A stretch of DNA of 64,000 nucleotides from Escherichia coli (GTDB lineage Bacteria; Pseudomonadota; Gammaproteobacteria; Enterobacterales; Enterobacteriaceae), in NCBI RefSeq assembly GCF_003334355.1, contig NZ_QOWP01000004.1. One strand, given 5' to 3'. The position numbers were made by a program, and so were the translations under genes. How positions within the stretch are numbered: the stretch's first letter is position 1; every line of letters begins with the position of its first letter. The notes below the pieces were generated by a model. That model did no database searches and was not told the origin of the DNA. It was given only the letters and a program-made list of their open reading frames with translations. Below are positions 11,594 through 32,125 of the stretch, in pieces.

Positions 11594-11620
11594 AAAAAAA
11601 ACGCCGGATTAACCGGCGTC
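11594..11620 (-). terminator. Rho-independent terminator after fadD
   Basis: On the minus strand: acgccgg-ttaat-ccggcgt hairpin followed by a T8 run. Confidence 0.7.
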
Positions 11621-11638
11621 TGACGACTGACTTAACGC

Positions 11639-13324
11639 TCAGGCTTTATTGTCCACTTTGCCGCGCGCTTCGTCACGTAATTCTCGTCGCAAAATTTTTC
11701 CGACGTTAGATTTCGGTAACTCATCACGAAACTCCACCAGCTTCGGTACTTTGTAGCCCGTGAGCTGACGGCGGCAAAAGGTCACCAGTGACTCTTCGGT
11801 AAGCGATGGATCTTTTTTCACTATGAAGATTTTCACCGCTTCACCACTGGAGCCGGAAGGTACGCCAACAGCCGCGACTTCCTGTACGCCAGGATGCTGC
11901 ATGACGACATCTTCAATCTCGTTGGGATAGACGTTAAAACCGGAAACCAGAATCATGTCTTTTTTACGATCGACAATGCGCAGGAACCCTTCTTCATCCA
12001 TCACCGCGATGTCGCCGGTGTGTAACCAGCCATTTTTGATGATTTCATCGGTAGCATCGGGACGCTGCCAGTAACCCAGCATCACCTGCGGTCCTTTGAC
12101 ACAAAGCTCACCCGGTTGACCTGGTGGTACTTCATTATCATCATCATCCACCAGTTTGGCTTCCGTCGACGGCACCGGCAAACCGATGCTACCACTATGA
12201 TAATCAATATCATATGGGTTAACGCTGACCAGCGGCGCACACTCGGTAAGGCCATAGCCTTCCAGCAGATACTGTCCGGTCAGTTTCACCCAACGCTCTG
12301 CCACCACTTGCTGCACTGGCATCCCACCGCCTGCGGAAAGATGCAGACTGGAGAAATCCAGCTGCTGGAACTCTTTATTGTTCAGCAACGCATTGAACAA
12401 GGTGTTAACGCCAGTGATAGCGGTAAACGGATATTTCGCTAACTCTTTTACCAACCCTGGAATATCACGCGGGTTAGTGATAAGCAGGTTCTGCCCACCC
12501 AGTTCGATAAACAGCAGGCAGTTAATGGTCAGGGCAAAAATGTGATACAGCGGCAGTGCCGTTACTACCAGTTCTTTACCTGGATGCAGCAACGGCCCAT
12601 AGGTGGCGTTGACCTGTTCCAGGTTCGCCAGCATATTGCGGTGAGTCAGCATCGCGCCTTTCGCCACACCTGTGGTGCCGCCGGTGTATTGCAGGAAGGC
12701 TAAATCTTCCGGCACCAGTTCGGGTTTGACGTACTGCATCCGGTAGCCGTTATGCAGTGCGCTACGAAATGAAATGGCATCTGGCAGATGGTATTTCGGC
12801 ACCAAACGCTTGATGTATTTAACAACGAAATTGACTACCGTGCCTTTTGCCGTAGATAGCTGATCGCCCATACGGGTCAGAATTACGTGCTGAACGGCGG
12901 TTTTATCAACCACTTTTTCCAGTGTGTGAGCAAAGTTAGACACGATAACAATCGCCGATGCGCCGCTATCGTTAAGCTGATGCTCAAGCTCACGCGGGGT
13001 ATACAACGGGTTAACGTTTACGACGATCATCCCGGCACGCAAAATGCCAAACAGCGCCACCGGATATTGCAATAAATTAGGCATCATCAACGCAACGCGA
13101 TCGCCTTTCTTCAGCCCCAACCCTTGTTGCAAATAAGCGGCAAACGCGCGACTGCGTTCTTCCAGCTTGCGGAAGGTCATCACCTCCCCCATATTCACAA
13201 ACGCAGGCTGATCGGCGTAGCGCGCGACCGACTGCTCAAACATATCTACCAGAGATTGATAACGGTCAGGGTTGATCTCCGTCGGAACGTCCGCGGGATA
13301 ACGGTTAAGCCAAACCTTCTTCAA
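11639..13324 (-). CDS. fadD: Long-chain fatty acid-CoA ligase FadD
   Basis: Acyl-CoA synthetase motifs; TTG start at 13322-13324 with GAGG SD gives a 561-aa product ([14 protein letters not shown]...). Confidence 0.93.
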
Positions 13325-29832: not shown

Positions 29833-30638
29833 TAAGAACGCTGCCAGAGGTGAATATTAAAGTCCGTCTGGCAGTCGAACACTTCTTTTGCTGCCAGTGT
29901 TTGCCAGACTTCTGGCTTCGCACGCCAGGCAAACGGCGTCATCTGCAATAATGCGACGGCTTCATCACCGCGAAGACGCATCGGATAACACAACTCCGCA
30001 CTCTGCTGTAATGTAAAACCTTCCAGTTGTTCTGCATGAGGTGCATGAAGATGTACTTCATTGTAAATCAGCCCCTTCAGCTCCATCAAATGTCGCGGTC
30101 CCGGCGTGGCAGTAATGACCCAGCCGCCGGGCTTCACTACTCGTGCTAATTCTTCTGCTTTACACGGCGCGTAAATACGTATTATGGCGTCCATACTGGT
30201 ATCGGAAAACGGCAAACGGTGGCTGGAAGCGACACAAAAAGTGACCTGCGGATAGCGTTTCGCCGCCGCTTTTATCGCTACCTTCGAAACATCCAGACCA
30301 AACGTGGTGATTTCGGGCAACGCATCGGCAAATGCGTGTGTGTAATACCCTTCACCACAGCCAATATCCAGCACCGCCGTGGCCTTATCATCAAGCCGTT
30401 CCCTCAGTTGGGCGACAATTGCATCACGCAGCGGCTGATAATGTCCGGCATCTAAGAATGCGCGGCGTGCTTGCATCATTTCCGCGCTGTCGCCCGGATC
30501 ACGAGACCGTTTATGCTGAACGGGCAGCAGATTGACATACCCTTCTTTCGCCATATCAAACTGATGTCGCTGGGGACAGATATAGCTGTTTTTTTCACGC
30601 GAAAGAGGCTGATGGCAAAGTGGACAGGAAAAAGACAT
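29829..30638 (-). CDS. rlmA: 23S rRNA m1G745 methyltransferase RlmA
   Basis: 269 aa; N-terminal Zn-finger cysteines (CPLCHQPL...YICPQRH) plus SAM-MTase motif ([11 protein letters not shown]). Confidence 0.93.
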
Positions 30639-30730
30639 GACAACTCCGGCAGGATACTAAAGGCCGCAAGTGTAACGCGAATCACGCGGCGGGCAAATAT
30701 CCGAACGCCAGGAGCGAAGATAAAGCATAG

Positions 30731-30757
30731 TAAAAAGCCTCGCATTCGACGAGGCTT
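30731..30757 (-). terminator. Rho-independent terminator after cspC
   Basis: Minus strand: gcctcg-tcgaatg-cgaggc hairpin followed by a T-run. Confidence 0.6.
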
Positions 30758-30803
30758 TATAGCGAGATTGAAGCGTATTCACACTTCAGATCAGTGGATT
30801 CGA

Positions 30804-31013
30804 TCAGATAGCTGTTACGTTAACAGCTGCCGGACCTTTCTGGCCGTCCTGAATTTCGAACTCAACGTTCTGACCTTCAGCCAGAGTTTTGAAGCCATTA
30901 CCCTGGATAGCGGAGAAGTGTACGAACACGTCTTTGCTGCCATCAGCCGGAGTAATGAAGCCAAAACCTTTAGACTCGTTGAACCACTTAACCTGACCTT
31001 TAATCTTTGCCAT
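30804..31013 (-). CDS. cspC: Cold-shock-like protein CspC
   Basis: 69 aa with RNP motifs (KGFGFI, VFVHF). Confidence 0.95.
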
Positions 31014-31025
31014 TTGAAAAATTCC

Positions 31026-31169
31026 TTAGATTGTTTTCTTCGCCCGCAGGCATAACATAGATAAAACTGACACATTACTGCATGAGGCACCAATATAAGG
31101 CTCGGCAGAGAAGCGGTATTCAACGTCAACGTGTTTACTCAGGACTTCTTTACTGAAAATGCCACACAT
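31026..31169 (-). CDS. yobF: Small protein YobF (47 aa), upstream gene of the yobF-cspC operon
   Basis: Minus-strand translation [47 protein letters not shown]; stop 12 nt before the cspC start; below the ORF-track cutoff. Confidence 0.75.
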
Positions 31170-31837
31170 AAACAGAACTGTACCTCGTTTAACCCGAAAT
31201 CTGTTATCACATACAACGTTAATTATGGCAAGCCATTTTTAAACATGTCTCGATCAGACGCACAAATCTCGATACGTCTTCCACTTTTTTTGCACACTTA
31301 TGCAACGGAATACGCGCCGATATATCATTGTGCTTAACCTTGCCAGTTCAGGCAGATACTTAAACTGGCGTAGTTTCTAACATAGTTCAATAAGTTCAGT
31401 TGTTCCAGGCCAGTGGGAGAAGTTATTACATAGTGCGTGCAATATCACATTTTTTGCTATGCAATGAATAAAAAGTTATATCACTTTTTCTCATAAAACA
31501 GTCAGTTAACGGCTATCAATTACCCTAAAGAGAAGTCAATCCCCAAAGGGATTGAAAATTTAAAATAAGAAAAATTGATGAATGAGCAAAAAATCAAGAG
31601 AGAAACGTTTCGCTAATAAATAATACCACGCTTAATCACAAATCCGATGTAAACATCCTAATAAATTAATGAGGAAAATATCTTTTTCTGATATCCCGTT
31701 ACGCAAATAAATAATATGATAATTATTTGAAGTCAGACCAGAGTTTTAATTTGAAGCAGTTGCACCATGGCAGTGCGTATAATCAGGATGAATTGAGTAA
31801 CCCTTCAACGACGGGGTTACTCAAGATTGAGGAAGGA

Positions 31838-32125
31838 TTATCGTTCGGCGACCAGACGAATAATATCTTCGTCTTCAACCGATTTTTGACTCTCAACGGT
31901 CTTTTTATCTGCTTTCTCAGGTTCGTTTGCTTCGCACAAACGACGTAACAGTGCATTTTGACGTTTTTGCTGATCCAGCAACGCCTCAAGCAGTTCAATC
32001 TGTTCGTTAGTCCGAGAACTGGCACGATTGATAAAAAACCACAAGATGAGCCCGATAAGAAGAACCACCACCGATACAACCAAAGACGCAATGTTCATCA
32101 CGCCTGAATTTACAACTTCGTTCAT
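31838..32125 (-). CDS. yebO: Small membrane protein YebO
   Basis: 95 aa; one N-terminal TM helix then a charged tail. Confidence 0.88.
   Translation of the reverse strand: MNEVVNSGVMNIASLVVSVVVLLIGLILWFFINRASSRTNEQIELLEALLDQQKRQNALLRRLCEANEPEKADKKTVESQKSVEDEDIIRLVAER

Follow-up and report, generated by a model that had tools for sequence, protein, structure and literature searches.

Comparative analysis of the yobF-cspC operon of Escherichia coli suggests a lineage-specific gap between the genes and nucleotide-level conservation of yobF

The two genes described here form the already-known and already-annotated yobF-cspC operon of Escherichia coli, which lies in the window that was analysed, a stretch of 64,000 nt of E. 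coli DNA (contig NZ_QOWP01000004.1). Comparison of this locus across the Enterobacterales leads us to consider it probable that cspC initiates translation independently, that the core of yobF and the sequence upstream of it are kept as a nucleotide-level control region, and that the 12-nt gap separating the two genes is incidental. The present analysis provides the coordinates and identity of the locus, the finding that the spacing is not conserved, the invariance of the Shine-Dalgarno (SD) sequence of cspC and the substitution pattern, while co-transcription, translation of yobF, control by sRNAs and unequal translation efficiency are taken from the literature.

Results and Discussion

Identity and annotation of the locus

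Both genes are encoded on the minus strand and begin with ATG (Table 1). Reading of the strand together with the ORF listing (30300-31700) bears out the initial annotation in giving yobF 47 codons and a stop exactly 12 nt before the cspC start. The 47-aa YobF matches Pfam PF10736 with E=2e-30, its residues 1-38 covering all 38 model positions, and the 69-aa CspC scores 170.2 bits against NCBIfam NF008190 CspC (cutoff 137). The locus is identical to yobF b1824 and cspC b1823 of E. coli K-12, with the same 12-nt gap and the same sequences for both proteins. Gene order is also as in K-12 (kdgR-yobH-mgrB-yebO-yobF-cspC-rlmA-mntP, with kdgR-yobH-mgrB-yebO upstream and rlmA-mntP downstream), and since no difference from the K-12 operon was seen, the window contains that locus. 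Many RefSeq E. coli chromosomes match its DNA with 100% identity, and each of the 5,426 complete genomes of E. coli has the yobF-cspC locus.

The gene at 30804-31013 (minus strand) is labelled 'cspE' (transcription antiterminator/RNA stability regulator CspE) in most RefSeq/PGAP records of E. coli. By position and best family match it is cspC; the label arises because the CspC protein also passes the CspE equivalog cutoff (134.1 bits against 120), and it is the sole annotation flaw seen. The two long overlapping ORFs to which the initial annotation had drawn attention (194 aa and 104 aa, both with a TTG start) are present in the ORF listing. A family search with both returned no credible match, and substitutions over cspC fit only the cspC frame. 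These ORFs are considered spurious because they are without a credible family match, are absent from the RefSeq annotation and are contradicted by the substitution pattern. The concern that they could mislead automated annotation did not materialize, as RefSeq/PGAP places yobF and the cold-shock gene correctly and does not call the spurious ORFs.

An Rfam scan of the whole window reported the SraC/RyeA and SdsR/RyeB sRNA pair at 46676-46820 (both strands) and sroD at 11595-11680 (minus strand), as expected in this part of the E. coli chromosome.

Table 1. Coordinates of features at the yobF-cspC locus (window positions).
Feature	Coordinates	Strand	Basis or remark
yobF ORF, 47 codons + TAA (K-12 b1824; PF10736, DUF2627/YobF)	31026..31169	-	ORF listing, Pfam, K-12 match
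Conserved yobF core, codons 1-37	31059..31169	-	slowest-evolving stretch, without codon-position periodicity
Variable yobF tail, codons 38-47 + stop	31026..31058	-	near-neutral rate, indels
Small GC hairpin U-GCC UGCG GGC-G, inside yobF tail	31041..31052	-	~30 nt upstream of cspC start
cspC SD, UAAGGA	31023..31028	-	nearly invariant across species
12-nt intercistronic spacer GGAATTTTTCAA	31014..31025	-	sequence and ORF listing
cspC CDS, 69 codons (69 aa), cold-shock domain (K-12 b1823)	30804..31013	-	strong purifying selection
cspC intrinsic terminator AAAGCCUCG-loop-CGAGGCUUUUU	30731..30758	-	stem and U-run conserved, loop variable
yobF 5'-UTR block GGGUUAAACGAGGU with yobF SD	31182..31195	-	complementary to OxyS nt 14-27
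~100 nt upstream of yobF, promoter-like pair inside	31170..31269	-	conserved as strongly as the yobF ORF
Moderately conserved block (…TTATTCATTGCA…AAAAATGTGATAT), 270-300 nt upstream of yobF	31439..31469	-	conservation profile
Spurious 194-aa antisense ORF, TTG start, over rlmA 5' end and cspC	30471..31055	+	no credible family match
Spurious 104-aa ORF, TTG start, other frame, over yobF and cspC	30815..31129	-	no credible family match

Co-transcription and upstream sequences

Co-transcription of yobF and cspC, as proposed in the initial annotation, is supported by the lack of an intergenic terminator and by published genetics in E. coli and Salmonella. The terminator scan found no terminator-like site between the two genes, the only hairpin having 4 bp and no U-run, and a strong intrinsic terminator lies 3' of cspC. 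The pair has been described as an operon, with a Salmonella transcription start mapped ~280 nt upstream of yobF (Table 1 of PMC10965054), and Tn5 insertions in the Salmonella yobF 5'-UTR give the same phenotype as an insertion in cspC (PMC10965054). Deletion of Salmonella yobF is polar on cspC and is complemented by a cspC plasmid only (PMC8599858). In E. coli, IS1 and IS5 insertions within yobF strongly lower the cspC transcript, and the promoters listed for the locus are yobFp1, yobFp2 and a cryptic intragenic cspCp8 (PMC13162491).

In the conservation profile of 82 upstream regions, a block of strong conservation spans -100 to the yobF ATG and a weaker one lies at -300 to -270. The position of the latter would fit the distal start site mapped in Salmonella. 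The proximal block holds a promoter-like pair that is invariant across genera, with a -35 element TTGCCA (31231-31226), a 17-nt spacer and TGn plus GATAAC (31211-31203) on the minus strand. A different candidate from the consensus scan, GAGACA-18-CATAAT, was rejected because its -10 element CATAAT is not conserved.

The yebO-yobF spacer (31170-31840, minus strand) is unusually long (~670 nt) and AT-rich, with nothing annotated there in K-12. Isolated conserved blocks occur in it near 31600-31615 (TAGCGAAACGTTTCTC) and near 31375-31410, and a hairpin at 31555-31536 matches CRISPR-DR25 at chance level (E=0.46). A few natural E. coli isolates (H1-H3; L089 265-962, NZ_CP109924.1) carry IS1 in this spacer, ~550 nt upstream of yobF (window about 31700). 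The yobF-cspC region has been reported as a hotspot of IS insertion and mutation in laboratory evolution (PMC13162491).

Spacing between yobF and cspC across species

Loci were gathered from 80 species genomes and from four more distant Enterobacterales (Serratia, Rouxiella, Brenneria and Apirhabdus), and spacing was compared in 82 sequences, comprising 81 fetched loci and the window. In 33 of these, 12 nt separate the yobF stop from the cspC ATG, and in another 10 the gap is 13 nt (together 43/82). The other gaps are 23-26 nt (12 sequences), 39-46 nt (24), 83 nt (1) and -14 nt, an overlap (2). Measured from the conserved ATG, YobF has 24, 38, 43, 46, 47 or 56 residues. The outgroup genera Serratia, Rouxiella and Brenneria have a 38-aa YobF and gaps of 36-41 nt. 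Among close relatives in Citrobacter, in Cedecea and between two unclassified Enterobacteriaceae isolates, TAA versus TTA at codon 39 is the only difference, and it separates 38-aa from 47-aa forms. Buttiauxella sp. B2 has a short insertion at the codon-39 site instead of the TAA/TTA change, and frame-shifting indels in Enterobacter species produce 43-aa forms.

The codon-39 toggles and the 38-aa outgroup forms suggest that the 47-aa form, and with it the 12-nt gap, represents read-through to the next in-frame stop that has been repeatedly gained and lost. In the lineage of Escherichia, Salmonella and Citrobacter, an ancestral TAA at codon 39 would have become TTA. The ORF would then run on through the hairpin in its tail to a UAA within the cspC SD, by chance the next in-frame stop, leaving a gap of 12 nt. 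The gap is thus real, but on the comparative evidence it appears to be a lineage-specific evolutionary accident.

Two records in this search carried names from other groups. An assembly titled Chryseobacterium sp. 18061 (L069, CACSKA010000003.1) and a protein labelled Pseudomonas lundensis (P0046) have typical Enterobacterales yobF-cspC sequence, and these records probably represent contamination or mislabelling.

Initiation at cspC and translational coupling

The spacing between the cspC SD and the AUG is 9 nt, and in E. coli the yobF stop codon coincides with the first three bases of this SD (31028-31026). The ribosome-binding stretch CUAAGGAAUUUUGCAAAUG is nearly invariant whether or not yobF stops there, and so are the 19 nt before cspC (CTAAGGAATTTTGCAAATG) in all 82 sequences. 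Folding prediction gives the SD a probability of 0.76 of being unpaired with each of three assumed 5' ends.

These observations bear on the suggestion in the initial annotation that the two genes are possibly translationally coupled. With coupling, ribosomes ending yobF at the UAA 12 nt upstream would reinitiate at the cspC start or open it, and yobF translation would set cspC output. The placement of the E. coli yobF stop inside the cspC SD, 12 nt from the AUG, speaks for such coupling, and the hairpin at 31052-31041, just before the cspC site, must be melted by ribosomes translating yobF. In addition, sRNAs that block the yobF ribosome-binding site have been proposed to lower CspC (PMC10965054), although the sRNA effects on cspC are equally explicable by mRNA decay or transcriptional polarity. 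Against coupling, roughly half of the species lack the juxtaposition, whereas the region of cspC initiation does not vary, and cspC has an SD of its own that is predicted to be open. A ribosome-profiling study, whose available text gives no direction for the difference, cites this pair as an extreme case of genes in one operon being translated with unequal efficiency (bioRxiv 10.1101/109264), which also speaks against it.

Coupled bacterial gene pairs typically have overlapping or abutting stop and start codons (e.g., ATGA or TAATG). The E. coli yobF stop is likewise near the cspC start, close at 12 nt though without overlap. Unlike such pairs, yobF-cspC lacks a conserved juxtaposition (gaps range from -14 to +83 nt), its downstream gene has a strong, independent and accessible SD, and its translation is reportedly very unequal. 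The claim of coupling is therefore not supported by our data, and we regard coupling as quite unlikely; it seems to be neither conserved nor necessary, and we infer that initiation at cspC is independent. The distance of 12 nt in E. coli may be short enough for some termination-reinitiation. More generally, a stop codon close to the next start in a single genome says little about coupling unless the distance is conserved.

Selection on the yobF core, the yobF tail and cspC

Substitutions were examined in an alignment of 85 nucleotide sequences reaching from -160 of yobF to +90 past cspC, with events counted by Fitch parsimony on a neighbor-joining tree built from the same short alignment. Column identity exceeds 90% from about -100 through the cspC stop. 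Within this conserved stretch the two genes display very different patterns. Events at codon positions 1, 2 and 3 number 6/5/295 in cspC and 39/35/31 in the 37-codon yobF core, the latter being a modest count (105 in total) with many events recurring at few sites. The yobF core is uniform over codon positions (p=0.63) and differs from cspC (contingency p=5e-47). Its events comprise 30 synonymous, 73 nonsynonymous and 2 stop-creating changes, a synonymous fraction of 0.29 where random changes would give 0.25. For the core, values of omega up to 0.3 are rejected at p=1.5e-6, while for omega = 0.5 the result is marginal (p=0.016).

At 0.95 events/site overall, the yobF core is nonetheless the slowest-evolving stretch of the locus. 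Its third positions change at 0.84 events/site versus 4.21 in cspC, a five-fold difference (p=1e-25), and at the distance of Serratia the pairwise Nei-Gojobori dS of yobF is ~3.5 times below that of cspC. Tree-free counts of variable sites by codon position (16/17/11 in the yobF core versus 4/1/52 in cspC) and E. coli-Serratia identities (0.84/0.89/0.84 versus 0.99/1.00/0.68) tell the same story. Pooled Nei-Gojobori pN/pS is 0.68 for the yobF core versus 0.027 for cspC, with some close pairwise omegas of yobF as low as 0.2-0.3. The core thus lacks the signature of a protein-coding gene under purifying selection, which cspC, serving as positive control, clearly has. The yobF tail (codons 38-47) evolves at 4.0 events/site, a near-neutral rate, with indels.

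These patterns are read most simply as constraint on nucleic acid (RNA or DNA) over the 111-nt core and the adjoining 100 nt upstream, with selection on the amino acids of YobF weak or absent. We infer further that the conserved core acts as RNA. The result is phrased as weak or no constraint at the amino-acid level, which is distinct from a lack of function.

YobF as a small protein

YobF has textbook status among the validated small proteins of E. coli. A rival explanation is that yobF is a conventional gene for a small (membrane) protein, under ordinary amino-acid selection with extra synonymous constraint, and that its linkage to cspC is just operon organization. Experimental work speaks for this explanation. 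Translation of yobF has been detected by tagging and ribosome profiling, and the protein is induced by heat and low Mg2+ post-transcriptionally and is membrane-associated when His-tagged (PMC11429745). An E. coli yobF deletion has a growth defect in low Mg2+ that is rescued in trans by a yobF plasmid and not by its ATG->TAA version (PMC11429745); this ATG-dependent complementation argues for a functional peptide, or at least for a function of its translation. The same study does not discuss cspC (PMC11429745). In the alignment, each of the 85 loci keeps the ORF open over 24 codons or more (24 aa in one form, from Yokenella, and 38 aa or more in the rest), and the only indel in the core is in frame.

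The substitution pattern points the other way. Codon positions 1 and 2 are no more conserved than position 3, by events as by variable sites, and the pooled pN/pS is 0.68. Radical replacements are recurrent (D15V, V9D, C2Y, K7I and C30S), a premature stop occurs at codon 25 in Yokenella, and one more stop-creating event is inferred at codon 30. The only moderately hydrophobic segment (residues 26-40) requires the tail, a lineage-specific addition, and the 38-aa forms do not have it. Since the loci were retrieved by peptide similarity, the sample is biased in favor of seeing protein constraint, and the result is therefore conservative. Weighing both sides, we keep a functional peptide in play as a rival, consider an explanation by ordinary protein selection unlikely and prefer conservation of the yobF core at the nucleotide level.

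Small RNA sites in the leader

In a seed search, nt 14-27 of OxyS are complementary at 13 of 14 positions to GGGUUAAACGAGGU (31195-31182), which covers the yobF SD (GAGG, 31186-31183, 13 nt before the ATG), in agreement with the published OxyS site (PMC10965054). Seed searching was used because unrestricted sRNA-mRNA duplex folding yielded meaningless whole-molecule duplexes. CyaR has also been reported to target yobF (PMC5861431); the seed search with CyaR found no site above chance in the yobF region (145/200 shuffles). Part of the conservation of the yobF 5'-UTR can be ascribed to sRNA targeting.

A second, G-U-rich complementarity was observed between OxyS nt 41-57 and the SD/AUG region of cspC (AGGAAUUUUUCAAAUGG; window 31010-31026, minus strand). 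Its score was reached by 7 of 200 shuffled targets and the target differs in other genera (UUUUGC), so that it may be due to chance. The motif AGUAA(A/U) occurs three times in the yobF core on the minus strand, at 31149-31154 (CAGUAAAG), 31134-31139 (GAGUAAAC) and 31074-31079 (CAGUAAUG), and GUUGA occurs twice in succession in the conserved core (31130-31116, minus strand).

Leader folding and the cspA thermoregulator model

The E. coli leader does not fold better than its shuffles (z=+1.0), and the analysis revealed neither a structure nor another RNA-level function for the yobF core, which counts against reading the core as RNA. The consensus fold (RNAalifold and pair counting) has 42 pairs, of which 29 never vary and one has changed on both sides. 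With most predicted pairs never varying at this divergence, a conserved secondary structure of the leader is neither supported nor refuted. The sole helix with a both-sided (compensatory) change is the small hairpin at 31052-31041. In Apirhabdus and Brenneria a hairpin of different sequence is found in the same place, ~30 nt before cspC, and there are positional counterparts before cspA and cspE, which suggests that hairpins at this position may have a common insulating or stabilizing role.

The Rfam model of the cspA thermoregulator (RF01766) matches 30729..31189 over its full length with 135.7 bits (GA 78). On this basis the leader could be a cspA-type RNA thermometer that contains yobF by chance, with refolding by temperature controlling translation of yobF, cspC or both. 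The hairpin before the SD, as in cspA, would be in keeping with this, as would the post-transcriptional heat induction of YobF (cited in PMC11429745). Several results argue against it. The leader alone has no match to RF01766 even at E<=10, and cspE scores 124 bits through its CDS (L087 308-750); hence the match is carried by the cold-shock-domain CDS and the terminator. The alignment to the model has many non-canonical pairs and low posterior probability in model positions 1-160, aligning the cspC, cspA and cspE leaders in pairs gives no significant score (z 0.5-1.7), and there is no covariation. The predicted pairing partner of the yobF SD changes with the assumed 5' end, and the SD opens only slightly between 30 and 45 C; sequestration of the SD as a heat switch was set aside for its dependence, in both partner and accessibility, on the assumed 5' end. 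A cspA-type thermoregulator was consequently rejected, and we consider a thermometer in this leader very improbable. As RF01766 reports any cold-shock-domain gene, its matches are no evidence of an RNA thermometer.

The leaders of the cspA family (cspA/B/G/I, RF01766) and of cspC do share some features. Both precede a cold-shock-domain gene, extend over ~200 nt or more and are strongly conserved in nucleotide sequence; both also have a small GC hairpin 25-35 nt ahead of the start and an AAGG-type SD at a spacing of 8-9 nt. They differ in that no match in sequence or structure was detected between them, that the cspC leader contains a translated ORF, and that cspC is not known here as cold-induced. 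Parallels may also be drawn with translated leader ORFs or uORFs of bacterial operons (e.g., mgtL and attenuator leader peptides). Like these, yobF is short, is translated and lies within a long regulatory leader; its peptide sequence is weakly constrained, and stress regulates its translation post-transcriptionally. Unlike them, yobF-cspC has no terminator/antiterminator pair between the genes and no evident run of regulatory codons, and a trans-acting role has been reported for the YobF peptide (PMC11429745). A leader-peptide attenuator was rejected, there being no terminator-like site between yobF and cspC.

A model for the yobF-cspC operon

Taken together with the published genetics, the comparative data are consistent with the following model. 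One mRNA, transcribed from one or more promoters upstream of yobF, would consist of a long leader and cspC and end at the terminator 30758-30731, with yobF as a short, genuinely translated ORF embedded in the leader. Translation of cspC would start from its own strong and exposed ribosome-binding site (UAAGGA, 9 nt, AUG), with no need of ribosomes arriving from yobF. Selection at the nucleotide level would preserve the 111 nt at the start of yobF, together with 100 nt upstream, as a post-transcriptional control region of the operon, including the OxyS target, and the reported CyaR target, at the yobF ribosome-binding site, and the YobF peptide sequence would be under weak or no selection.

We also put forward, tentatively, the more far-reaching possibility that YobF is not preserved as a protein at all. 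Selection might instead act to keep a ~210-nt RNA element within the leader of the cspC mRNA (31059-31269), with translation of yobF serving a role in cis and the peptide being a largely unconstrained by-product that flips between 38 and 47 residues by single mutations. If this were true, the cis role of yobF translation could be, for example, protection of the leader from Rho or RNase E, or its remodelling under heat or low Mg2+.

As annotation, the operon is textbook knowledge. What the present analysis adds is comparative evidence that the 12-nt gap is probably an accident and that yobF appears to be conserved chiefly as cspC leader RNA. The phenotypes ascribed to YobF, and the many adaptive yobF mutations found in evolution experiments, may therefore act via the cspC leader RNA and not via the peptide.
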